Assembly: GCA_964603595.1 (NCBI GenBank)
Contig: CAZRVN010000004.1
Span: 148,678-212,677 of the forward strand
Direction of reading: 5' to 3'
Length of the DNA stretch: 64,000 bases
From: an uncultured Actinomycetota bacterium
GTDB taxonomy: Bacteria; Actinomycetota; Humimicrobiia; Humimicrobiales; Humimicrobiaceae
The position numbers and the translations under genes are program-made. How positions within the stretch are numbered: the first letter of the stretch is position 1; every line of letters begins with the position of its first letter. This document shows, piece after piece, positions 16,444 through 32,181 of the stretch. The notes beneath the pieces were generated by a model. The model searched no databases, was not told the DNA's origin, and saw only the letters and a list, made by a program, of their open reading frames with translations.

Positions 16444-18561
<2,118 letters not shown>

Positions 18562-18749: not shown

Positions 18750-19346
18750 TTACTCAGCACCTTCCAGAATATATACCAGCCCATAATTTTCAAACACCCT
18801 TTTCATCTCCTTTTCCGCCTCTATAAAGAGTGCTTCCGTATCAAGATAGAGCTTTTCTATTTTTGGCTCATCAAATGTGGAATAATTTCCGCTTTCATAA
18901 TATGACAGCACAAGATTTATGGTTTCAATGTCACTATCAATAAATTCCAGTTCATAATTATAAAAAGTCTCAAGCGGGGCCGGGATATTCTCAATAAGGA
19001 GTAATTTTTCCCTGTAACCGGTTACCGCATCACGCCTTTTAGATGCAAGCTCTTTTAGCTGGCCTACGTTTATAAACTCGCTGTCAAGTTCTTCTGATAA
19101 TTCAACTGTCTTTTCAATAAATTCATCCTTAAGCGGCCTGAACTTTTGGTAATACTCTGCAATCTCCCTCGCTTCTTCTGACTTTATCTCTTCAAGCATC
19201 TCAATTTCCCGCCTTGCCTCTTCTTCCAACTCTCTGCGGTTTTCTATTTTCTGCATCTCCATGGAAAATACATTGTATATTACAAGTGCTATAATAATTA
19301 TAACCAGTATCAATGCAGCTAATTTTTCTTTATTTAACTTACTCAT
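18750..19346 (-). CDS. Sortase-associated membrane-anchored coiled-coil protein (copy 1). Function unknown.
   Basis: It has an N-terminal transmembrane segment and an E/R-rich heptad region (EEEARREIEMLEEIKSEEAREIAEYY). It lies directly downstream of sortase 1. It is clearly paralogous to the ORF at 23936-24514. Confidence 0.6.
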   Translation of the reverse strand: MSKLNKEKLAALILVIIIIALVIYNVFSMEMQKIENRRELEEEARREIEMLEEIKSEEAREIAEYYQKFRPLKDEFIEKTVELSEELDSEFINVGQLKELASKRRDAVTGYREKLLLIENIPAPLETFYNYELEFIDSDIETINLVLSYYESGNYSTFDEPKIEKLYLDTEALFIEAEKEMKRVFENYGLVYILEGAE

Positions 19347-19354
19347 TTAATCCA

Positions 19355-20170
19355 TTATTTAACCTCGATAGATGCTATTTTGAGGGGATATATATTTATA
19401 AGTTCTGATATTAATACAATCCTCTCAGCTGCAGAATATTCCGGGTGGCATGAAGTAAGCAAAAGCTCTTTTTTACCAGTACCTTCCAGAATATATACAT
19501 CCTCTGGACCGACTATTTCCAATTCACTGACAGCATAGATAAAAGTCCCGCTTTCTGTCGTTTCAAGATAAATCAGGTCACCTTCAAGAAGTTCATCTAT
19601 CCTATTAAAGGGTGAGCCGTAAGTAGTCCTGTGACCGGAAATAGTGCACCTTCCGGTATCACCCGGAAGCGGGGTTCCCTCAATATGCCCCGGCCCACTT
19701 GTTAAAGTCAGTATGTCAGCCCCCTCGTTTACTATCCGCTCCAGCTTAATTCTGGGGATCTTAATCTTCAACGGGAAAAAGTCTTCCGCAGTTAGATTAC
19801 TGTAGTCTAATATTTCCCTACCAATATCAAAGCCAATTTCAATATCCCCGTAATCTGCAGTGTCCCGGCTGACGGACCCTTCCAGGGTTTTACCATCTTT
19901 AACGCTATCCTCTGAGGCAGTATTTTCTGAAGTGGTTCCAGAATCCCCTGCCAGCCCGGTTGTAGTGGCCCCCTCCTCTGATAGAGCCGCTTCCTGTGAT
20001 CCCCACTTTGATAAAATATCTTCCTGTCTCAATGTTGTTATGATATTTATATACAAGGGATATAATAAAAATAATATTACCGCGAAAGCTGCTAGAAACA
20101 ACGTTACCTTAATTATTCTTGACACTTTGACTTTTGAAAACTTTACTTTTTTCATATCATCAGGACGCAA
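19355..20170 (-). CDS. Sortase (copy 1)
   Basis: It has an N-terminal transmembrane anchor. The catalytic triad context is conserved, with His in GHRTTYG, Cys in LLLTSCHP (the TLxTC motif) and the following Arg. Confidence 0.8.
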   Translation of the reverse strand: MRPDDMKKVKFSKVKVSRIIKVTLFLAAFAVILFLLYPLYINIITTLRQEDILSKWGSQEAALSEEGATTTGLAGDSGTTSENTASEDSVKDGKTLEGSVSRDTADYGDIEIGFDIGREILDYSNLTAEDFFPLKIKIPRIKLERIVNEGADILTLTSGPGHIEGTPLPGDTGRCTISGHRTTYGSPFNRIDELLEGDLIYLETTESGTFIYAVSELEIVGPEDVYILEGTGKKELLLTSCHPEYSAAERIVLISELINIYPLKIASIEVK

Positions 20171-20213: not shown

Positions 20214-22100
20214 TTATTTATAAAAAATATTTGATACCCTGCTTAATGCATCTATGGCATGCTGCGTGGTATCAATCCGTATCCTGTTATCATCAACCCT
20301 GAATCTAATCGCCCCTTCTACTCTCTCAGGGTGTGAGAGATAGTACATATCCGTACCGTCAAACTGAAGATTGATTAGATTATGAACACCGAGAAGAATT
20401 GATTTTTCATATCTATACATCCTCCCGTAATCTTTATCAAGCTCAGCCAATTCATAAGCGTAGGTCAATCCTTCCACATAAACTCCAGTGCTGCCTGAAA
20501 AGGGCACGCCGTATTCGGGATTGTCCGGGTCATAAAATCTCCCCAGATAATCAATATATGGTTTCCCGTCCTGGTCCTGCATTTGGATAATCTTATCATT
20601 TAACTTAAAGATTGCATCCTTGTATTTACTGGAACCAGTAATTAAATACAGCTTATAAAGAGACATCGTATGCCAGGGAACATAAGCCGGAAAATAATTA
20701 GCATCCATAAGGTCAACATATTTATTGACATAGTAATCCTGGGATTTTATCGCTGCATCAAGATACTTTTCATCTCCTGTTTTTTCATACAGTTCTACCA
20801 TGCTCAATATAGCTTCGCCGCTGTAATAAGTCAGCAGTTCTTCTTCATCATAGGAGTAGCCGGGTTCAATATACCACGCCCCAAGGGAGCCATCTTCATT
20901 CTGGAGGTACTGTAATGTATTGGCAAGCTTTGTAGCTTCATCCCTGTACTGCTCAAAATATGGGCTGAAAACCAGGACTCTCAGAGCTATGCCAATTGCA
21001 CCGATTTTTGATTTATTTTTAAAATATATATACCCCATCTTGCCGTCTTCCTGGTACCAGTTTTTAAAAATATAATCCAGGTTTTCCTCATGCATCCGGA
21101 GTAGCTCATTATTTTCACTGCTTTTTTCAGCCAGCCATCTTGATGACATAAGCTGTCTTATCATATTATTGCCATCATAATATTCGCCTTTTGAAGGTTC
21201 GTACTGGTAATTAAAATAACCCTTGCTATTCAGGTTGGAAAGCATCCACGCTTCGGCAAGGTCAAGGGAGCTTTCTATTTTTTCGCTATCTATATCAGGC
21301 CTAAAATCAATTTCGTTACACCTGTAGAAAGTAGTAATCTCATCTGAAAACCTGGTGGTCGCAAAATGTATGGTGGGAAAATAATATATATTTGTTGAAC
21401 TATCACTGTAGCAATCCTCATCTAAGTCCGCCTTTTTACATAACTTTAGAAGCAATGTATCCAGACTATGATTTCCTTCAACGGCAACCGTATTATAATA
21501 AGTTGCTCCGCTTTCCCCTTTTTCTATCCTTAACCCATGAATTCCTTTTTCATAACCCCCGTCTAACTTTTTTTCATCTCCAAGGATAATTATCTCTATT
21601 TTCAGATCATCTATATCATCTTCGGTTATTCCTCCGAATCTAGCGTCCTCTATGGTCCTTAAAGCCGCGACATAGACACTTTCCGCCAGGTTATTTTTTC
21701 TTGCAGAATATGACCCCTTTTTGCATCCCTCTAAACCGAACCCGATAAATACCTTCCTATCTACATCATCATATTTTTCTAAAAATAAAGACTCCTCATC
21801 AACATCCGAACCCGAGAAATAGTCATCTATCGCCTTATACGCGACTTCCATCAAGTATTCTTTATCTTCGTAAGATAAATCAATGAATTCGCCCGAATCC
21901 ACTTCAATAGAGTTAACATATTTAGAAAATTCTTTTTCAAACCAGCTTTCGTAGTCGTCACCGACCACGCTTATGTCTATTTCGCCCTCCTTTTCCTCCC
22001 TGCACCCGGAGCACAGGTAAGCGAAAGGTAAAAATAAAAAAATCATAGAGATAAAAAGCAAGATAATCCTTACTGTAATTTTTTTTCCATACCCGGGCAT
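20214..22100 (-). CDS. Lipoprotein with a C-terminal alpha/alpha-toroid-like repeat domain. Function unknown. The start is reassigned to the Met at 22100.
   Basis: The Met at 22100 is preceded by a GGAGGG RBS and begins a signal peptide with lipobox LCSGC. The C-terminal half carries repeated aromatic D-G motifs (NEDGSLGAWY, QDQDGKPY) reminiscent of prenyltransferase or terpene-cyclase-type toroids. The track ORF starts at 22178. Confidence 0.5.
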   Translation of the reverse strand: MPGYGKKITVRIILLFISMIFLFLPFAYLCSGCREEKEGEIDISVVGDDYESWFEKEFSKYVNSIEVDSGEFIDLSYEDKEYLMEVAYKAIDDYFSGSDVDEESLFLEKYDDVDRKVFIGFGLEGCKKGSYSARKNNLAESVYVAALRTIEDARFGGITEDDIDDLKIEIIILGDEKKLDGGYEKGIHGLRIEKGESGATYYNTVAVEGNHSLDTLLLKLCKKADLDEDCYSDSSTNIYYFPTIHFATTRFSDEITTFYRCNEIDFRPDIDSEKIESSLDLAEAWMLSNLNSKGYFNYQYEPSKGEYYDGNNMIRQLMSSRWLAEKSSENNELLRMHEENLDYIFKNWYQEDGKMGYIYFKNKSKIGAIGIALRVLVFSPYFEQYRDEATKLANTLQYLQNEDGSLGAWYIEPGYSYDEEELLTYYSGEAILSMVELYEKTGDEKYLDAAIKSQDYYVNKYVDLMDANYFPAYVPWHTMSLYKLYLITGSSKYKDAIFKLNDKIIQMQDQDGKPYIDYLGRFYDPDNPEYGVPFSGSTGVYVEGLTYAYELAELDKDYGRMYRYEKSILLGVHNLINLQFDGTDMYYLSHPERVEGAIRFRVDDNRIRIDTTQHAIDALSRVSNIFYK

Positions 22101-22195
22101 TATATTCCCTCCTATTACCTTATGATACATAAACCCTTCCCGTATCATTTTTAAATTGTGCAACAAATTATACAACAATACTGGTTAAAATATAA

Positions 22196-22226
22196 AATAG
22201 CCCGGACAATATGCCCGTGCTATTTT
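22196..22226 (-). terminator. Bidirectional-looking intrinsic terminator hairpin (copy 1, slightly decayed)
   Basis: AAATAGCCCGGACAATATGCCCGTGCTATTTT forms a 9-10 bp stem flanked by an A-tract and a T-tract. It is a near-identical copy of the hairpin at 25288-25320 with one stem mismatch. Confidence 0.55.
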
Positions 22227-22248
22227 ATTTCATTTTATATAATACCTG

Positions 22249-22287
22249 TTACTTCCTCCTGAACTTCTTCCTAAGTGAAGCTATAAA
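22249..22287 (-). pseudogene. 3'-terminal remnant of an LPxTG surface-protein gene. Only the last 12 codons and the stop are conserved.
   Basis: The minus-strand translation ...FIASLRKKFRRK* matches the C-terminal tail FIASLKKKFRRK* of the 1453-aa LPFTG protein. It is followed by the same terminator hairpin, and the upstream reading frame is not conserved. Confidence 0.55.
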
Positions 22288-22307
22288 AAAACAGGAAAAG
22301 AGGCTGA

Positions 22308-22335
22308 TTGACTTATTTCACAATTAGTATATAAT
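22308..22335 (+). promoter_or_regulatory. Putative sigma-70 promoter for abiEi with an overlapping dyad
   Basis: TTGACT-16 nt-TATAAT lies 11 nt before the ATG. An AGTA...TACT dyad overlaps the -10 element and could be an autoregulatory operator. Confidence 0.4.
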
Positions 22336-22346
22336 ATGTACTAATT

Positions 22347-22979
22347 ATGAATCAAGTTAAAAAAATTAAAAAACTGGAAAATCTCAGCTATTTTAATAAA
22401 GATACCATATCGCAGTTTGTTGATATAAATAAAAACGCTCTTTCGCAAGACGTTAAGAGATGGATTCAAAATGGTACTTTAATACAGCTAAAAAAGGGGT
22501 TTTATGTTACCTCAAATTATTTTGAAAGACTGGGAAACAAAACTCCATACCTTGAATTTATATCAAACAAACTGAGGGAGCCGTCATATCTAAGTCTGGA
22601 ATATATTTTACAAAAATACGGAGTATTAACGGAATCAATCTATTCTATTAATTCCATAACCATCAAATCAAGTAGAATATATAGAAACAATCTTGGTCTT
22701 TTTATATACAGGAATATAAAAGATGAGCTTTTTACAGGTTTTAATATCACGGAAAAAAATGGCTTTATAGTTAAGGAATCTACAAAAGCCAAGGCCCTTT
22801 TTGACTGGCTCTATTTAAGAATGTTAAGATTTAAAAAAATAGACCTTGCTGTGATGGAATCATTCAGATTGAATCTTGAAAACTTTAAGAAAAAAGATTT
22901 TAAGGAATTTAAAATATATTGTGAGCTTGCAGGTATAAAAAAATATTTAAAACTTGCAGAGATAATTAAAAAAATATAA
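22347..22979 (+). CDS. abiEi: AbiEi-like antitoxin/transcriptional regulator (type IV TA / abortive infection)
   Basis: 210 aa. It lies directly upstream of a DUF1814/AbiEii-family nucleotidyltransferase gene with a 10-nt gap. Its size and position fit AbiEi. Confidence 0.6.
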   Translation: MNQVKKIKKLENLSYFNKDTISQFVDINKNALSQDVKRWIQNGTLIQLKKGFYVTSNYFERLGNKTPYLEFISNKLREPSYLSLEYILQKYGVLTESIYSINSITIKSSRIYRNNLGLFIYRNIKDELFTGFNITEKNGFIVKESTKAKALFDWLYLRMLRFKKIDLAVMESFRLNLENFKKKDFKEFKIYCELAGIKKYLKLAEIIKKI

Positions 22980-22989
22980 CTGCTATAAA

Positions 22990-23841
22990 ATGATTTATAG
23001 AGAACTAGAAAAAATATTAATCGAAGAAAGAGACAGAGGCTCGCATGATGCTTATATCCTTAACTTATTAAAGGAGTATCTTCAGGTATATGTACTCTAC
23101 TTTATCTATACAAATTCTAAATATAATAAAAATCTTATTTTTACCGGCGGCACCTGCCTAAGACATTTTTATAATCTGCCGAGACTTTCAGAAGACATAG
23201 ATTTTGATTTTAAGGAGAATTTTGACCGTAAGATTTTGCTTGATGACCTTGAAGAATATTATAAAAAAAGATATAAGTATAATGAAATAAAGCTGGCTTT
23301 AAAGCAGCGCGGAGAACAGATATTGCTAAAGTTTCCAGTTTTACATAAACTGGGTCTGGCAGAAGAAGATAAAAGCAATCTGCTATTTGTAAAGCTCGAT
23401 TTTTCAGTAAACCCATCAAAATACTTTAACCTCGAGACTACTTCAAAATCCATTTATGGTTTTAATTTTGCGGCAGTTCATTATGACCTGTCTTCCCTTA
23501 TGTCCGGCAAAATACACGCTATTTTGGTAAGAAAAATATTTAAGGGTATCAATAATACCGAAGTGATTAGAGGCAGGGATTATTTTGACCTCCTATGGTT
23601 CTTAAAAAAATCTATCAGACCCAATCTAAAAAGACTTTCAGAAATGCTTGGCACCAGCATTAGCATGAATTTTCTTGTAAAACAACTGGATTTAAAAGTT
23701 AAGGAGCTTGCCAGGAAACATAAGTCATTTTTAAAATCTGACATTGCCCCACTTATAAGCAGCCCTGATTTTATAAAAATCTATGTGGATAATTATTACG
23801 AGGAATACATGAGAAATAAAAAGAATCTCTTCCAGGAATAA
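22990..23841 (+). CDS. abiEii: AbiEii/AbiGii-family nucleotidyltransferase toxin
   Basis: It carries LIFTGGTCLRHFYNLPRLSEDIDFDF, the GG[ST]xL and [DE]x[DE] nucleotidyltransferase motifs typical of AbiEii (DUF1814). The product is 283 aa. Confidence 0.7.
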   Translation: MIYRELEKILIEERDRGSHDAYILNLLKEYLQVYVLYFIYTNSKYNKNLIFTGGTCLRHFYNLPRLSEDIDFDFKENFDRKILLDDLEEYYKKRYKYNEIKLALKQRGEQILLKFPVLHKLGLAEEDKSNLLFVKLDFSVNPSKYFNLETTSKSIYGFNFAAVHYDLSSLMSGKIHAILVRKIFKGINNTEVIRGRDYFDLLWFLKKSIRPNLKRLSEMLGTSISMNFLVKQLDLKVKELARKHKSFLKSDIAPLISSPDFIKIYVDNYYEEYMRNKKNLFQE

Positions 23842-23935: not shown

Positions 23936-24514
23936 TTACTCAAAAAGATATCTCATCTCATATTGTCTGCATACATTATATAACTCTTCCTCAGCCCTCT
24001 GGTAAAGCAAACCGGTTTTCAGGTAAAGCTCATTTAAGATACTGCTATTATATGTTGAGTAGCTTTCACTGTCATAATATGAAAGCACAAGCCCGATGGT
24101 TTCAATATCGCTTTTTATAAATTCAAGCTCATAGTCATGGAAAGTTTCAAGCGGGGAAGGGACGCTCTCAATCATAAGAAATTTATCCCTGAATGCAATT
24201 GCAGCATCAAGCCGGCGAGATACAAGCTCTTTTATCCGGTCTATATTTACAAACTCGCTTTCCATCTCTTCTGATAATTCAATCGTTTCTTTGATAAATT
24301 CATCCCTGGCAGGCTCAAACTCAAGATAATATTCTACAACCTCTCTCGCTTCTTCTAACTTTATCTCCTCAAGCATCTCCCTTTTGAGCCGTTCTTCTTC
24401 TCTGGCTTCTCTCTCTGCTGCTATCTTCCCGTGTTCAACAAGGATAACATTAAGACCGACCAGAATAACTGCTGCTAAAAGAATTACAAGGGCTATTTTA
24501 CTTTTTCCTTTCAT
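23936..24514 (-). CDS. Sortase-associated membrane-anchored coiled-coil protein (copy 2)
   Basis: It is paralogous to the ORF at 18750-19346 (AEREAREEERLKREMLEEIKLEEAREVVEYY). Its start overlaps the sortase 2 stop by 4 nt (ATGA). Confidence 0.6.
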   Translation of the reverse strand: MKGKSKIALVILLAAVILVGLNVILVEHGKIAAEREAREEERLKREMLEEIKLEEAREVVEYYLEFEPARDEFIKETIELSEEMESEFVNIDRIKELVSRRLDAAIAFRDKFLMIESVPSPLETFHDYELEFIKSDIETIGLVLSYYDSESYSTYNSSILNELYLKTGLLYQRAEEELYNVCRQYEMRYLFE

Positions 24515-25230
24515 TTCACCCCTCCATAAATATCCAGACCCATCGGATAGAGATTCAGGAGCTCAGAGATTACAACCAGTCTTTTCGCACCGGAATATTT
24601 CGGATGGCAGGTTGTAAGCAAAAGTTCCTTCTTATATGAGCCCTCAAGTATATATACATCTTCGGGGCTAACGATATCCATACCTGTAACAGCATACACG
24701 AATAATTCCTCCTTAATAGTTTCCAGATAAATAAGGTCTCCTTCTTCAAGCTCATCAATCCTGTTAAAAGGCGAGCCGTAAGTCGTTCTGTGGCCGGATA
24801 TCGTACACCTCCCGGTATCTCCGGGAAGCGGCGTTTCAGAGATATGGCCGGGCCCCTGCTCTAGGGATTGGGGTTCCGCCCCCTCCCAGGAAACAAGCTC
24901 AAGGCCTATCCGCGGGATAGTCAGTTTCGCAGGAAAAAAATCCCCCGATGTTAATGCACTATAATCCAGGCCGCCATTAATCTCATATTGTGCACCACCG
25001 CCGGAAGTGTTAAAAGTCTCCATGTCTGCTTCCGCACCACTGCTATCTTCGTCTGCTTTTTCTTCTTCAAGTAAAGCTTCTTTACCTTCCTCCCACTGTG
25101 ATAAATAAGACGCCCTTTCCTTTTCGGTTAAAATATTTGAATAAATAAGGTAAAAAAGAAATGACACAGTCAGTACAGCAAAAATACAAAGCAGAATAAT
25201 CTTTATTTTTTGTTTCCTGGTTTTATCCAT
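24511..25230 (-). CDS. Sortase (copy 2)
   Basis: It has a transmembrane anchor and the motifs GHRTTYGSPFNRIDEL and LLLTTCHP. It is about 75 percent identical to sortase 1 across the catalytic domain. Confidence 0.8.
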   Translation of the reverse strand: MDKTRKQKIKIILLCIFAVLTVSFLFYLIYSNILTEKERASYLSQWEEGKEALLEEEKADEDSSGAEADMETFNTSGGGAQYEINGGLDYSALTSGDFFPAKLTIPRIGLELVSWEGAEPQSLEQGPGHISETPLPGDTGRCTISGHRTTYGSPFNRIDELEEGDLIYLETIKEELFVYAVTGMDIVSPEDVYILEGSYKKELLLTTCHPKYSGAKRLVVISELLNLYPMGLDIYGGVK

Positions 25231-25287
25231 CTGCCACTCAGTTAAATTTTAGAGAAAATTATATCCCAATAGAGTTAAAGTTAAAAT

Positions 25288-25320
25288 AAAATAGCCCGGA
25301 CAATATGCCCGGGCTATTTT
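25288..25320 (-). terminator. Intrinsic terminator downstream of the LPFTG protein gene
   Basis: AAATAGCCCGGACAATATGCCCGGGCTATTT forms a perfect stem flanked by an A-tract and a T-tract. It lies 23 nt after the stop codon. Confidence 0.7.
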
Positions 25321-25342
25321 TCTATATATTATATTATATTTA

Positions 25343-28300
25343 TTACTTCCTTCTGAACTTCTTTTTCAGTGAAGCTATGAACATTGCCAGTCCACCCAGT
25401 ATTATGGAAACACCGGATATTGGAATAGCAGGATTCATTCCAGTGAATGGAAGTTCCGTAATACCCAATACCTCTATCCCACCATCAGGAGGTGTCTTGG
25501 AGTTAGTTCTGCTGAAACTATGGTTTCTCTTAGCCGAATTAACTTCTATTCCAGTAATATCACTCATTTTTGAATAACCTGACGGCACGGTAGTTTCTAC
25601 AATTCTGTAGGTACCGAATGGGAGATTTCCCCAGCTTACAGTACCATTTCCGGTTATCTTCTTTTCTCCGCCAACTGCAGCACCATTTGAATCATACAGG
25701 GTAAATCCTGCAACATCGGTAGAGTCAAGCCCGCTCTTTGTAAGGGTTACCGAACCACGATAGCTAACCTTTTTCGTGTTTTCTCTGTCAAAGGTGTAGC
25801 TCTGCTGGCCTTCATTTCTGGAATCAATAACTATTCCGGTAATATCTGCTATAGTATTATATCCGGAAGGAGTGGTTGTTTCCTTTATTGAGTATGTATC
25901 CCACTCAAGATCCGTCCAGACAACCGAACCGTTACCTGTTACCGTCTTTTCTCCTCCTACAGGATTATTACTTGAATCATACAGTGTAAATCCTGCAGTA
26001 TCATCATAATCAAGACCGCTCTTATTAAGTGTTATATCTCCAGGTATCCTCGGGTCAGCTATTTCCTGCGTAAGGATAACATTCGGAGTTTCGCTATTCA
26101 AACCAAATACAAACTCACCGATAGGCGGATTCCCGAAAAGCAGATATCCCGCTGGAGCACTTGCTTCTACCACTTTATAAGTTCCATATGGCAAGTCTAT
26201 CCATTTGTAGTGGCCATCAGGACCAAGGATCTGTGTATCAACCAGAATCCATGAACCCTCTCTATACAATTCAAATGTTGATCCGCCAAGAGGCAGCCCT
26301 GTAACAGCATCAGTCTTGAATATTTCAATGGAGCCCTTCTCGGCACAGTTCTCTATAACTACGGGAACTTCTGCACCTATATCACCTTCAATTGTTCCTG
26401 ACCATACCGGATTAGAAACTGTGTAGGTATATAAATTGGTTATTCCATTAAAGTCTTCAAGTATGTAGTAATCACCATAAGGAAGGTCTATCCAGCTTGC
26501 AGTTCCGCCGTTTGATACTGTCTGCGGTGAAGTAGCGATCAGGTTATCACTAGAATCATACAGTGACAGATTTGCCTCATCGTCTCCTTCAAGCCCTATC
26601 TTTGTAACTGTAATGGAGCCCTTCTCTGCAGTGTTTACCACTTCGACCGTAGGATTTTCGTTATCCGGACCGATAACTACCGGGTCGGATGATAGGTCTG
26701 TTGTGTAAGTAAATACGTTACCTGAAGGATAACTCTCTGTTAGGGTATAAGAGCCAAATGGAAGGTCAATCCATCCACCTGTTCCACCTTCACTCAGAGT
26801 GATATCAGTATAAGGGCCACCAGGGCCAGAAAGTGAGAATATTGCCTGGTCGCTCTCTTCCAGTCCAGTCTTGTGAACCGAAATGGAACCCTTCTCGGCA
26901 GTATTAGTTATAGTATCAGTTTCATCACCATCAACAGTGATATTAGCTACCGGATTAGAAACCGTATAGGTATATACGTTGGTTATTCCATTAAAGTCTT
27001 CAAGTATGTAGTAATCACCATAAGGAAGATCTATCCAGCTTGCAGTTCCGCCGTTTGATACTATCTGCGGTGAAGTGGCAATCAGGTTATCACTAGAATC
27101 ATACAGCGAAAGGTTTGCCTGATCATTACCTTCAAGACCTGTCTTTGTAACTGTAATTGAACCCTTCTCGGCAGTGTTGACTACCTCAATCGTCGGCCAT
27201 GTATTATCCGGGCCAATTATTATAGGATCGGACGAGAGGTCTGTTGTGTAAGTATATACGTTACCAGACGGATATGTTTCGGTTAAAGTGTAGCTACCAT
27301 ATGGCAGTTGTTGCCAGTGAATACTTCCATGATTCCATATCGACGCACCACCATAAGATACTCCGCCTGGGCCTGTAAGTGTAAAGGTCGCCCTATCGCT
27401 TCCCTCAAGACCTGTCTTGTGGACCGTAAGGTCGCCCATCTCGGCAGTGTTAGTTATGGTGTCAGTCTCATCACCATCAACGGTAATGTTTGCAACAGGA
27501 TTAGAAACCGTATAGGTATAGACGTTGGTTATTCCATTAAAGTCTTCGACTATATAGTAGCCGCCGTAAGGAAGGTCTATCCAGCTTGCCAATCCACCAT
27601 TTGATACTGTCTGCGGTGAAGTGGCAATCAGGTTATCACTAGAATCATACAGTGAAAGGTTTGCCTGATCATTACCTTTAAGACCCATCTTTGTAACCGT
27701 AATGGAGCCCATCTCGGCAGTGTTAGTTATGGTATCAGTTTCATCACCATTAACGGTAATATCAGCAACAGGATTAGAAACCGTATAGGTATATACGTTG
27801 GTTATTCCATTAAAGTCTTCGACTATATAGTAGCCGCCATAAGGAAGATCTATCCAGCTTGCCAATCCACCATTTGATACTGTCTGTGGTGAAGTGGCGA
27901 TCAGGTTATCACTAGAATCATACAGCGAGAGGTTTGCCTCATCGTCTCCTTCAAGACCTGTCTTTGTAACTGTAATGGAGCCCAAAGGACAATCTACGAT
28001 ATCTTCAACTGCATTTAATGCGCCACCTGTCATGAATAATGCGGTTCCTCCGATATAAACAGTATAAGTAGCCGTATCAACGGCGTATCCCGGAGGAGCA
28101 CTTTCTTCAGTTAACGAATATGTACCCCATGGCAGTCCATCTATAAATGCATTGCCATCCACATCTGTGGTTAAAGTATATTCCGTTACATCAGGTGTGA
28201 AAGTCTGGCCGCCGATATAGGTCAGCTTGTATACCGCACCTTCAACCGGACCCTGGGTCTCGGAATCAGTCTTGTTAAGCTCAAAGCTTCCCCATGCAGT

Positions 28301-29704
28301 ATAAGTGCCGGAATCGTCATCACACGGCTCACTGTAGCTTTCTATAACGAATCTCTGGTCGTATGCTTCGGGGTATGTGATTTCCTCATCATGCCATTCC
28401 CTATCTTCAAAGTAGTAGCCAGCAGGTTTGGTAACCGAAGGGGCACCATTTTCCCAATGACTCCATACTATACCAGTCTCTTGTGTCCAGTATGTACCTA
28501 TCCAAACATCTTCATACGTCCCATAAATTCCGTCCTGTCCCTGTTTTTCAGTAACTACCATCTTACCGGCATTGAAATAGTCAATATCCACATTATCCGG
28601 ATTTTCAGTAATTACATCTCCATTTACGTCAGTTGCAACTATATGCGGGGAATTATAAGATCCCGGATCCTCTGTATCATCATAATCAGGATTTTCAATA
28701 GTCTGTATAACATTCATATTTGAATTGAACTCATCAAGGTCTTCTCCCTGTTCCTTGTCAATCTCTCCATCCTCATCAATATCAAGACATGCGCCTATGT
28801 TAACAGACATTTCCTCAAATTCGGAATAACCTTCTCCCCACCAGTAGAAATAGTATGGGATGCTTGCAAAACCGTAATTATCATCGGTTATCGCGCCATC
28901 GCCATCGGTATCCTCGGCATTACTGCCGTCATTATCATCCTCGTAATCATACATAGTGGAAGTAGTTTCAAGTACAAGGTCCGTCTGTGAAAAACTGACA
29001 TTATATGAACCCAAGAGCACATACCAGGAAACAGTTTTACCTTCATCGGTAATACCCGGAACCAGAGGATTTTCCATTGTAGCAGTAGCTTCAAATTCAT
29101 TATAATCGCCATTTTCATCTACCAGAGTATCCGCATCAAGGGCCACTTCTACTTCATTTACATTTTCATCATCCAGATATTCCTGCAACGACACGTCATT
29201 ACTAGGATCAGTATCATTGTTTTCAGGCAGTGCGACAAAACCATCTGCCATGGTCATAACTGCAAGTACTACTTCTTCCACATCATCATTAGGAGTGTAG
29301 TCCACATTATTATCTATTATATCCCACACAGCATCCTGATTTTGACCATCGGTAGCACCTGTAGCAGTTGTTGCCATGATCTCGGCTGCCTCAGCATTTA
29401 CTTCATCAACACCATTTGCCTGAAGCTCATCCGATACATCCGTACCTGTTTCGCTGTAAGCATCCGTAGCGTCGGTCAAGGTTACATCTTCATCCACACA
29501 ATAAACATCCATCTCTTCACCTGCAGGCGCCTCCTCAGGTTCATCGGAATAATCAGCATCATTAGGATCCATTTCATATTGGCCATTATCCGGTCCTTCT
29601 GCAGTTGAATTATCACCGGGTTCACCAAATAGGAAAGATGGTGCTGTGAAGAATACGATAAGAACAATCCCCAGGCATAACGCCATAAGTCTTTTTAATT
29701 TCAT
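25343..29704 (-). CDS. Giant sortase-anchored surface protein. It has a signal peptide, an acidic region, tandem Cna-B/SpaA-like domains and an LPFTG sorting signal.
   Basis: 1453 aa. The signal peptide reads MKLKRLMALCLGIVLIVFFTAPSFLFG. The N-terminal 300 aa are D/E-rich. SpaA-type motifs TYxxxExxAPxGY occur (TYKVVEASAPAGY, TYRIVETTVPSGY). The C-terminus reads ELPFTGMNPAIPISGVSIILGGLAMFIASLKKKFRRK, which is a sorting motif, a transmembrane segment and a basic tail. Confidence 0.85.
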   Translation of the reverse strand: MKLKRLMALCLGIVLIVFFTAPSFLFGEPGDNSTAEGPDNGQYEMDPNDADYSDEPEEAPAGEEMDVYCVDEDVTLTDATDAYSETGTDVSDELQANGVDEVNAEAAEIMATTATGATDGQNQDAVWDIIDNNVDYTPNDDVEEVVLAVMTMADGFVALPENNDTDPSNDVSLQEYLDDENVNEVEVALDADTLVDENGDYNEFEATATMENPLVPGITDEGKTVSWYVLLGSYNVSFSQTDLVLETTSTMYDYEDDNDGSNAEDTDGDGAITDDNYGFASIPYYFYWWGEGYSEFEEMSVNIGACLDIDEDGEIDKEQGEDLDEFNSNMNVIQTIENPDYDDTEDPGSYNSPHIVATDVNGDVITENPDNVDIDYFNAGKMVVTEKQGQDGIYGTYEDVWIGTYWTQETGIVWSHWENGAPSVTKPAGYYFEDREWHDEEITYPEAYDQRFVIESYSEPCDDDSGTYTAWGSFELNKTDSETQGPVEGAVYKLTYIGGQTFTPDVTEYTLTTDVDGNAFIDGLPWGTYSLTEESAPPGYAVDTATYTVYIGGTALFMTGGALNAVEDIVDCPLGSITVTKTGLEGDDEANLSLYDSSDNLIATSPQTVSNGGLASWIDLPYGGYYIVEDFNGITNVYTYTVSNPVADITVNGDETDTITNTAEMGSITVTKMGLKGNDQANLSLYDSSDNLIATSPQTVSNGGLASWIDLPYGGYYIVEDFNGITNVYTYTVSNPVANITVDGDETDTITNTAEMGDLTVHKTGLEGSDRATFTLTGPGGVSYGGASIWNHGSIHWQQLPYGSYTLTETYPSGNVYTYTTDLSSDPIIIGPDNTWPTIEVVNTAEKGSITVTKTGLEGNDQANLSLYDSSDNLIATSPQIVSNGGTASWIDLPYGDYYILEDFNGITNVYTYTVSNPVANITVDGDETDTITNTAEKGSISVHKTGLEESDQAIFSLSGPGGPYTDITLSEGGTGGWIDLPFGSYTLTESYPSGNVFTYTTDLSSDPVVIGPDNENPTVEVVNTAEKGSITVTKIGLEGDDEANLSLYDSSDNLIATSPQTVSNGGTASWIDLPYGDYYILEDFNGITNLYTYTVSNPVWSGTIEGDIGAEVPVVIENCAEKGSIEIFKTDAVTGLPLGGSTFELYREGSWILVDTQILGPDGHYKWIDLPYGTYKVVEASAPAGYLLFGNPPIGEFVFGLNSETPNVILTQEIADPRIPGDITLNKSGLDYDDTAGFTLYDSSNNPVGGEKTVTGNGSVVWTDLEWDTYSIKETTTPSGYNTIADITGIVIDSRNEGQQSYTFDRENTKKVSYRGSVTLTKSGLDSTDVAGFTLYDSNGAAVGGEKKITGNGTVSWGNLPFGTYRIVETTVPSGYSKMSDITGIEVNSAKRNHSFSRTNSKTPPDGGIEVLGITELPFTGMNPAIPISGVSIILGGLAMFIASLKKKFRRK
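26317..27982 (-). repeat. Tandem near-identical repeats of about 280 bp inside the surface-protein gene
   Basis: Protein-level units of about 92 aa (GSITVTKTGLEG.D.ANLSLYDSSDNLIATSPQTVSNGG.ASWIDLPYG.YYI.EDFNGITNVYTYTVSNPVA.ITV.GDETDTITNTAE) recur four times. They are interleaved with two copies of a related B unit. Long stretches are visibly identical at the nucleotide level. Confidence 0.8.
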
Positions 29705-29754: not shown

Positions 29755-30060
29755 TATTTTTTCCCCCTCTTTATTTTAGGTTAATTTATTATTTAAAACC
29801 GACCCCCATAGCCAGTTGAGTTATTTTTAAAAATCCCTATATAAATACAAAAACCGACTACATTTAGTCGGTTTCGCTATTTGCTCCTCTTTTCTCAAGC
29901 GTCCAAATTAGAGAAAAGCATCAAAGCTACTAAATCAAAAATTAAGCTATTTCTTCCTTTGCTCTCTATTCAATAAAAGTATTTTATAAATTTTATATAA
30001 CTATAATATTTAAGTGATGAAATTATACTACATCTTTAAGAAAAATACCAAACTTTTTTT
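29705..30060 (-). promoter_or_regulatory. Promoter plus structured 5' leader (copy 1 of a duplicated ~200-bp element) upstream of the LPFTG protein gene
   Basis: On the minus strand there is a -35/-10-like pair near 30040-30010. Hairpin B (CTTTTCTC...GAGAAAAG, 29888-29918) comes next. Hairpin A (CCGACT-N6-AGTCGG, 29854-29871) follows and is trailed by UUUUU. Confidence 0.5.
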
Positions 30061-31248: not shown

Positions 31249-31429
31249 TTGAAATTTAAATAAAAAAAACCGACTGCATTTAGTCGGTTTCGCTACTTGC
31301 TCCTCTTTTCTCAAAGCGTCCAAATTAGAGAAAAGTATCAAAGCACCTAAATTAAAATAAATATTTTAATATCTAAATTATTATATTTTTATAACGGGAT
31401 TATATTACATTTTTTACTAAAATGTCAAA
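31231..31429 (-). promoter_or_regulatory. Promoter plus structured 5' leader (copy 2 of the duplicated element) upstream of the LRR lipoprotein gene
   Basis: The minus strand carries TTGACA (31429-31424) and a TATAAT-like -10 (31404-31399). Hairpin B is next. Hairpin A (31270-31287) comes next, followed by eight U residues that end about 14-30 nt before the start codon. Confidence 0.55.
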
Positions 31430-31548: not shown

Positions 31549-32181
31549 ATGAAAATAAAAAAATTCTATAAAAAACATAAAATAAAAATTATAAGATACA
31601 CCGGAATAGCCCTGATAATAATGGGGCTTTCGGTTATAATATGGCCCTTCTACACCAGCTTTATCATGGCAAGAAGAGAACTGGATATACTCTCCTCATG
31701 GGAAGAAGAAACGGAATTAACCGGCGGTGAAAAAGGTGATGGAATAAATGGAAAGCTTGAAAAAGAAAATATTCCCGTTGATACAGAGAAAAAAGTCCCT
31801 TTCAGGATTACAATCCCCGATATTGAGCTGGACTGGATTGTCAATAAAGGAACCGACTACGCAACTTTAAGAAAAGGACCGGGCTATTACATATCCTCTG
31901 CTCTCCCGGGCGAAGAAGGCACCTGCCTTGTGGCCGGTCACAGGACTACCTACGGTGCTCCCTTTAATAGACTGGGTGAGCTTGAAGAAGGTGACGAAAT
32001 AATAATAGAGACAGAAGGTAACGAAAAATTCACCTATATAGTTACGGGTATGGAAGCTGTACTCCCCACTGACATGTCTGTCCTTGAAAATACTGATTAC
32101 CCTTCCCTGGTGCTGTCAACCTGTACACCAAAATATTATGCCACGAGAAGACTTATAATATATGCAAGGATTGCAGAATAA
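31549..32181 (+). CDS. Sortase (copy 3)
   Basis: It has a transmembrane anchor and the motifs AGHRTTYGAPFNRLGEL and LVLSTCTP, followed by the conserved Arg. The product is 210 aa. Confidence 0.8.
   Translation: MKIKKFYKKHKIKIIRYTGIALIIMGLSVIIWPFYTSFIMARRELDILSSWEEETELTGGEKGDGINGKLEKENIPVDTEKKVPFRITIPDIELDWIVNKGTDYATLRKGPGYYISSALPGEEGTCLVAGHRTTYGAPFNRLGELEEGDEIIIETEGNEKFTYIVTGMEAVLPTDMSVLENTDYPSLVLSTCTPKYYATRRLIIYARIAE

Follow-up and report, generated by a model that had tools for sequence, protein, structure and literature searches.

Positions 22120-22287 (minus strand) of a 64 000-nucleotide stretch of contig CAZRVN010000004.1, from an uncultured Actinomycetota bacterium (the whole stretch is hereafter called the window), form a composite scar. 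It consists of the tail of a sortase-substrate gene, a terminator, a promoter, a 5′ untranslated region and the start of a second lost gene, and it lies beside a predicted abiEi-abiEii defence module. The tail and its terminator are, with high confidence, a true relic of the 3′ end of a gene for an LPFTG-motif surface protein. For its origin, the reading that we favour, at about even chances, is that the body of the substrate gene was replaced when a foreign abiE-bearing segment recombined in.

An initial annotation of the window had noticed that a short minus-strand reading frame resembles the last 12 codons of the 1453-aa LPFTG gene (25343-29704, minus), and that the same terminator hairpin, with one stem mismatch, follows it; both observations held up. 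The frame at 22249-22287 translates to FIASLRKKFRRK followed by a stop codon, while the intact gene ends in FIASLKKKFRRK and stop. A repeat search of the window recovered the pair as a 99-nt direct repeat with 84% identity (22189-22287 versus 25283-25381), which blastn lengthened to 140 nt at 78% identity (22151-22287 versus 25242-25381, E 2e-27). Each copy contains the last 12 LPFTG codons and the stop, a spacer, the terminator hairpin and the promoter region behind the hairpin; a third copy was not found by blastn in the window. The homology runs in frame for 39 nt up to the stop codon and then on into non-coding DNA. No open reading frame (ORF) is listed at 22249-22287, and upstream of the 12-codon tail, where the frame reads stop-NKSISLFSCF..., neither an LPFTG motif nor a start codon is found in frame. 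The tail, identified from its repeat with 25343-25381, the alignment to one relative (L013, below) and the translated frame, is a remnant and not a functional LPXTG sortase-substrate gene. It has the mark of one, significant homology to intact 3′ ends that crosses the stop codon into the flank.

Relatives of the locus (numbered L001 onwards) were fetched via the AMMECR1-like protein encoded next to the relic, and further loci via AbiEii. Scans of genome contigs and metagenome contigs yielded 1 and 3 loci, and most contexts came from exact-protein look-ups. Against these, the relic (copy A) aligns further than it does against the window's own intact copy B: 171 nt at 78% identity (E 2e-36) match the junction between the LPFTG and rhodanese genes in L004, and the same alignment is obtained with L007-L009. 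Beginning in the 12-codon tail, the alignment crosses the terminator and a TATAAT promoter and ends at GTTTATGTAT(C/T)ATAA, where a rhodanese lipoprotein gene starts (in type II genomes, described below, the gene behind the LPFTG gene was identified as rhodanese by Pfam). The rhodanese-start match is also seen against L010; the L013 LPFTG tail is 71% identical to the relic over 103 nt, and the tail can additionally be aligned to L020 and L005. The initial annotation held that only a tail was left. That remnant is confirmed, and the scar also holds a promoter and a rhodanese-gene relic, comprising the start codon and first approximately four codons (22120-22130, minus; alignment to L004, L007-L009 and L010). 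The rhodanese start is in frame with the start of the AMMECR1-like gene and 10 codons upstream of it; the peptide between the two (22098-22130, minus) reads MYHKVIGGNI in the window and MHYKITGGQI in L010.

The junction is present in the independent assemblies L001 (JGI) and L024/L025 (Logan), with L024 100% identical across it, so it is not an assembly artefact; P0241 (>90% identity) belongs to the same population and has an identical junction. An Rfam search of 22050-22400 returned only sub-threshold noise, so the relic is not a known RNA. Read on the plus strand, the relic gives a translation (FLLNFF..IKK) resembling a membrane-protein C-terminus, a by-product of K/R-rich codons in antisense; this reading was dropped because at the DNA level the relic resembles the LPFTG tail far more closely.

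The hairpin of copy A (22226-22194, minus; AAAATAGCACGGGCATATTGTCCGGGCTATTTT) carries one stem mismatch and still folds at -19.6 kcal/mol (z -5.95), compared with -23.6 kcal/mol for the intact terminator B (25288-25320, minus). It is followed by UAUUUUAUAUUUU, giving the stable hairpin and U tract of a predicted intrinsic terminator; a consensus terminator scan picks up only its 6-bp core. Orthologous hairpins lie behind the LPFTG genes of L004, L005, L013 and L020. In L010 the hairpin has decayed (-7.1 kcal/mol, z +0.5) and the stop codon of the tail has moved (…SLRKKFREKL, then stop). Directly behind terminator A, a promoter scan found a promoter-like site, TTTATA-18-TATAAT (22167-22196, minus), and TATAAT recurs at the same spacing behind the terminator in L004, L005, L007, L010, L013 and L020. 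The stretch TTTTATATTTTAACCnGTATTGnTGTATAATTT is conserved in L010, and between the window and L010 the promoter is the best-kept part of the relic, with an identity of 0.83 against 0.69-0.75 elsewhere in it. This site is probably the promoter of the AMMECR1-like, srtA and ccA genes. On this pattern of conservation, we infer that the predicted promoter is the part under selection while the tail and hairpin drift; we propose that it has been retained because it would drive the downstream operon.

Five arrangements of the locus were found. In type I (L005, L013, L014 and L015), the order is sortase-substrate gene, AMMECR1-like gene, sortase, cc (a membrane-anchored coiled-coil protein gene) and ligA. 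Type II (L003, L004+L006 and L007-L009) has LPFTG gene, terminator, promoter, rhodanese gene, srtB, cc, AMMECR1-like gene, membrane-protein gene on the opposite strand and ligA. Type IV (L016-L023) runs LPFTG gene, terminator, sortase, cc, abiEii/abiEi on the opposite strand, optionally AAA_14/DUF4143, then PfkB, membrane-protein gene and, further on, ligA. The L010 type (L010-L012) comprises rhodanese gene, a 45-codon cc remnant, abiEii/abiEi, 108 nt, tail relic, decayed hairpin, promoter, rhodanese start, AMMECR1-like gene and ligA. The window itself reads LPFTG gene, terminator B, srtB, ccB, abiEii/abiEi on the opposite strand, tail relic, terminator A, promoter, AMMECR1-like gene, srtA, ccA and ligA. 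The initial annotation had the orders in the window right, except that it omitted the AMMECR1/GH127-like gene of the lower cassette, which sits between terminator A and srtA.

That annotation also looked to related genomes for an intact second substrate gene at this site, and type I genomes have one. The gene is complete and directly upstream of the AMMECR1-like gene in L005 (857 aa, LPFTG) and L014 (581 aa, LAFTG). In L013 it encodes at least 668 aa, ends in ...ELPFTG...FIASIRKKFRRK and stop, and is followed by the same hairpin and a TATAAT promoter that lead straight into the AMMECR1-like gene; in L015 only its C-terminal end is present upstream of the AMMECR1-like gene, at a contig edge. 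These four genomes indicate that a substrate gene upstream of the AMMECR1-like gene is a widespread state, and loss of the gene at this site from the window and L010 is well supported by the comparison. The same truncated relic lies next to abiE in L010, a species-level relative with housekeeping genes approximately 81% identical; since the two share it, the scar is old.

The module lies in a block (24068-22288) consisting of the 3′ end of ccB, abiEii, abiEi and an 8-codon membrane-protein relic. The ccB gene (23936-24514, minus) is a chimera: a maximum chi-square test with permutation, taking L007 for type II and L016 for type IV as the parental sequences, placed a breakpoint at 24068 (chi-square 38.4, p<=0.0005). 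Left of it the window agrees with type II at 126 informative sites and with type IV at 46, right of it with type II at 10 and with type IV at 34. Trees of the half-genes agree, grouping the C-terminal part with L016/L020. The 5′ part (24069-24514, 446 nt, minus) therefore appears native, closest to the cc genes of the type II relatives L004/L007, and the type IV-like 3′ 133 nt (23936-24068, minus) would have arrived with the abiE block. An alternative assignment, in which the cc gene of L003 was the chimera, was overturned by the same trees and test.

Several features set the block apart from its surroundings. Between the window and L010 it is 89% identical (96-97% in its promoter) and the flanks 81%, and the ccB 3′ part is 89.6% identical to the L010 cc remnant. 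At third codon positions of conserved residues, identity is 0.83 for abiEi and 0.80 for abiEii, against 0.60-0.71 in six flank genes (ligA, CPBP, AMMECR1-like, LRR, gatA and gatB); the block thus has about half the synonymous divergence of its flanks. Identity to L010 falls sharply at 22290, and the truncated end of the tail relic coincides with the block edge. The type IV genomes contain the block too (82-85.5% identity, right end at 22285-22287), but its neighbour there is PfkB or a riboswitch fragment and not a tail relic. Because its synonymous identity differs from that of the flanks and its context is different in L016-L023, the block appears foreign to the recipient lineage, and the data support abiE being part of a discrete, laterally exchanged block.

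The outermost approximately 50 nt of the block (22285-22337, plus) are homologous to the 3′ end of a 192-aa CNNM-like membrane-protein gene, covering its last approximately eight codons, the stop and downstream sequence; 53-65 nt match the gene end in L003, L006 and L007 at 74-77% identity (E 8e-8). This stretch now carries the predicted abiE promoter. The initial annotation had abiE occupying the place of the gene body; the module does not reach the tail itself: the membrane-protein relic intervenes in the window, and in L010 an additional AAA_14/DUF4143 relic does so, in which 80 of the 108 nt between block and tail match the start and upstream region of the L020 AAA_14/DUF4143 gene at 83.75%. 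No further membrane-protein or LPFTG coding sequence was detected by tblastn in these 108 nt. A full-length OLE RNA (RF01071, 423-439 bits) adjoins the intact 192-aa gene, which may be oapA-like, in L007 (12609-13200, minus), L016 (4783-5374, plus) and L020 (3536-4126, plus), all genomes labelled as Actinomycetota metagenome-assembled genomes; no OLE RNA was found in the window, where the membrane-protein gene is represented only by the 8-codon relic.

The block shows no sign of transposition. Short direct repeats flanking abiE, which the initial annotation had suggested looking for, do not exceed chance: the longest at the block edges is 8 nt, equalled in 228 of 300 shuffles. Target-site duplications or inverted repeats beyond chance were likewise absent from the abiE flanks, and there is no transposase, abiEi and abiEii being the only genes in the block. 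Insertion of a transposon or insertion sequence was rejected on these grounds. At the 22287/22288 junction only a TTxAT-type microhomology is seen.

The identity of the module itself, as given in the initial annotation, was confirmed. Both proteins match PADLOC models (AbiEi E 2e-40, AbiEii E 1e-33), and AbiEii also matches Pfam PF08843 at 70.8 bits (cut-off 22.5). AbiEi matched no Pfam model and reached NF047376 only below the NCBIfam cut-off (27 versus 150 bits). The two genes, abiEi (22347-22979, plus; 210 aa, predicted antitoxin/regulator) and abiEii (22990-23841, plus; 283 aa, predicted DUF1814 nucleotidyltransferase toxin), lie on the same strand 10 nt apart with abiEi upstream, and by sequence the pair is an AbiE type IV toxin-antitoxin (TA)/abortive-infection system. 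A promoter scan found a near-consensus abiE promoter (TTGACT-16-TATAAT, 22308-22335, plus), and an inverted repeat, AATTAGTA-N9-TACTAATT (22322-22346, plus), spans its -10 box; this repeat is likely to be the AbiEi operator.

These data suggest a history in which a full substrate gene lay ahead of the AMMECR1-like, srtA and ccA genes in the ancestor, as it still does in several present relatives. A fragment from a type IV-like donor, bringing a cc 3′ end, abiE and the membrane-protein relic, would have paired with the resident ccB and entered by a homologous crossover at 24068. At its other end, an illegitimate joint with the substrate gene would have formed 39 nt ahead of the stop codon, with no more than the TTxAT-type microhomology, and the resident DNA between crossover and joint would have been lost. 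Homology-facilitated illegitimate recombination (HFIR) is the simplest account of such a route: one junction appears to lie in homologous DNA, within a chimeric gene, the other lies in DNA without homology, and the insert looks foreign. The right edge of the relic would be explained by a further deletion that ran from the fourth rhodanese codon to the ribosome-binding site of the AMMECR1-like gene. The relic homology, the chimeric ccB, the separate history of the block and the substrate genes at this site in relatives are evident from the sequence comparisons, and it is from these that one event is taken to have made both the insertion and the deletion.

Every scar could be derived from a single ancestral order, which we infer to have been LPFTG, T, P, rhodanese, srtB, ccB, LPFTG′, T, P, rhodanese, LPFTG2, T2, AMMECR1-like, srtA, ccA and ligA (T, terminator; P, promoter). 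The window and L010 would have kept tail′, T, P and rhod′ of this order, and L005 would be an apparent collapse between the two T-P-rhodanese copies. In type II genomes, T2 is reduced to its right half, which lies upstream of the AMMECR1-like gene and shares 23 of 24 nt with L005.

The initial annotation proposed that a defence module recombined in and thereby deleted a substrate gene. The lateral block, the chimeric ccB and the tail ending at the block edge sustain the first part; that the abiE-bearing recombination caused the loss is plausible, its chances roughly balanced, and the present abiE copy may not have been what removed the gene. A number of observations weigh against this history. 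Between the window and L010, identity is only 69-75% in the tail and terminator, like neutral flank, but 89-97% in the adjoining block, so either the abiE allele now in place postdates the junction or a later exchange has renewed the block. The AAA_14/DUF4143 relic between block and tail in L010 means that the original neighbour of the tail may not have been abiE, and was perhaps a larger island. The L010 cc remnant starts at the nucleotide equivalent to 24068, which is not what a simple crossover model predicts. The L013 gene reaches a contig edge at its 5′ end, with in-frame stops upstream, and so may be incomplete; among the relatives we found neither a genome with both cassettes and an intact gene between them nor a near relative without abiE.

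Several of these points sit comfortably with a different course of events, in which the substrate gene was truncated earlier or separately and abiE is merely nearby; we consider this possible, if on the doubtful side. One candidate is the deletion of a divergent pair, the membrane-protein and LPFTG genes, leaving their 3′ ends back to back, and the plus-strand membrane-protein relic does abut the minus-strand LPFTG relic at 22287/22288. That membrane-protein relic, however, accompanies abiE in all four contexts (window, L010, L016 and L020), which indicates that it belongs to the block and is not a resident gene cut in place. In the other candidate, an AAA_14/DUF4143 gene took the place of the gene body and subsequently decayed. 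L010 retains the start of such a gene between block and tail, and beyond AAA_14 in L020 lies a decayed fragment of a c-di-GMP-II riboswitch, the usual LPFTG leader here, which hints that AAA_14 replaced a riboswitch-led gene. A relic older than the present abiE block would fit either candidate, but the riboswitch fragment and the tail relic are never seen together in one genome.

It is quite unlikely that no gene was lost at all and that a single LPFTG gene was split by an insertion of approximately 3.1 kb (terminator, srtB, ccB and abiE). Such an insertion, of Campbell type or homologous on one side, would have brought its own gene end and left the 99-140-nt direct repeats, which are 3094 nt apart and do flank srtB-ccB-abiE. 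Excising the segment between them restores the L013-like order of LPFTG, terminator, promoter, AMMECR1-like, srtA and ccA, and no other relative has both sortase cassettes. Yet srtB, the 5′ part of ccB and the intact LPFTG end are 76-88% identical to type II relatives, as are ligA and the AMMECR1-like gene, and so look vertically inherited; trees do not group srtB or the ccB 5′ part with the donors of the abiE block, and the foreign DNA begins only within ccB at 24068. L010, moreover, has rhodanese sequence on both sides of the block, an intact gene upstream and the gene start within its relic, so two terminator-promoter-rhodanese copies existed earlier. A still simpler explanation, a shared terminator family with a coding tail that matches by chance, takes some encouragement from hairpins of the type ATAGCCCGG...CCGGGCTAT behind several different LPxTG genes of the clade. 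It is extremely improbable, and is refuted by the extent and significance of the alignments: 39 nt of in-frame homology to the stop, continuing to the rhodanese start over 171 nt (E 2e-36; E 2e-27 within the window). These values equally dispose of the concern, raised in the initial annotation, that the similarity might fall below significance.

Returning to replacement by the abiE-bearing segment, a bolder version would see the block as a mobile unit without a recombinase, with physically defined ends, landing in the conserved coiled-coil gene of sortase cassettes, spreading among related species and repeatedly remodelling surface-protein loci, with the relic terminator and promoter co-opted to keep the sortase operon expressed and insulated. 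We regard this as speculative and rather improbable.

The lower cassette of the window, all on the minus strand, comprises the AMMECR1 and GH127-like lipoprotein gene directly downstream of the relic (20214-22100, 628 aa), srtA (19355-20170), ccA (18750-19346) and ligA (16444-18552). The intact cassette has srtB (24511-25230, minus) next to ccB. Its class E-like sortase is 51% identical to that of srtA, also class E-like, and the coiled-coil proteins CcA and CcB are 53% identical; the window sortases score under the NCBIfam class cut-offs. A third class E-like sortase gene (31549-32181, plus) is divergent from the LRR and LPFTG genes; its homologue in L005 (398-1690) is fused to two rhodanese domains, and free-standing rhodanese lipoprotein genes recur in these cassettes.

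Two c-di-GMP-II aptamers (RF01786, gathering score 53.5) lie on the minus strand at 29857-29940 (57.9 bits) and 31273-31357 (61.9 bits), one preceding the 1453-aa LPFTG gene and the other an LRR lipoprotein gene. Such aptamers likewise precede LPFTG genes in relatives (three in L005, one each in L007 and L010). By analogy with the sortase substrates of Clostridioides difficile (PMC6200980), surface-protein expression here is probably controlled by c-di-GMP. L001 (4484-8845), assembled from the same population, has the LPFTG gene called as a pair of ORFs (840 and 606 aa), which could reflect a frameshift or a repeat mis-assembly in the tandem SpaA-domain repeats (273/546-nt periodicity, window 26274-28066). 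The type IV genomes L016 (3568-4498) and L020 (2324-3254) have a second TA-like pair by ligA, DUF6922 and a 210-aa AbiEii-family protein, and the interval from the sortase cassette to ligA looks like a hotspot of defence or TA genes.

The locus records, base by base, how an incoming phage-defence module can lead to loss of a surface protein and to rewiring of the operon next to it; the lineage is an uncultured one labelled Actinomycetota and without genetics. Its scars (the chimeric cc, the tail relic, the rhodanese start and the half terminator in relatives) permit one proposed ancestral order for five arrangements. We see it as a worked example of defence-island turnover: ordinary biology, unusually well documented, and no new kind of system.

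Each component has counterparts among known systems. The predicted AbiE module resembles the described type IV toxin-antitoxin/abortive-infection systems (PMC3985639) in its bicistronic abiEi-abiEii order and in an AbiEii with a DUF1814/PF08843 nucleotidyltransferase domain, and the inverted repeat over the -10 box is as expected for autoregulation by AbiEi (PMC7319586). It differs from reference AbiE in that its AbiEi matches PADLOC models but not Pfam, falls under the NCBIfam cut-off and is known here from sequence. The cassettes share with known sortase-substrate cassettes an LPXTG gene followed by a dedicated class C/E-type sortase (here LPFTG, hydrophobic helix and K/R tail, then terminator and sortase gene), and with C. 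difficile the c-di-GMP-II riboswitch upstream of a substrate gene (PMC6200980). Unlike those, they include a conserved membrane-anchored coiled-coil protein, some variants add AMMECR1/GH127-like and rhodanese lipoproteins, and their sortases fall under the NCBIfam class cut-offs. The scar itself recalls both HFIR, an established route joining one homologous and one illegitimate end (PMC3240628), and the orphan effector/immunity remnants left by displacement in Vibrio cholerae type VI secretion system clusters (PMC5361080). As in these cases, one junction lies in a conserved gene with homology and the other joint is non-homologous; foreign DNA is gained, resident DNA is lost and a short 3′ remnant stays. 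In contrast to the HFIR examples, the mechanism here is read from DNA of an uncultured lineage, and the block has sharp ends in several genomes, a feature that HFIR alone does not predict. The scar is nevertheless of the kind left by incoming modules that displace resident genes, and requires no new mechanism.

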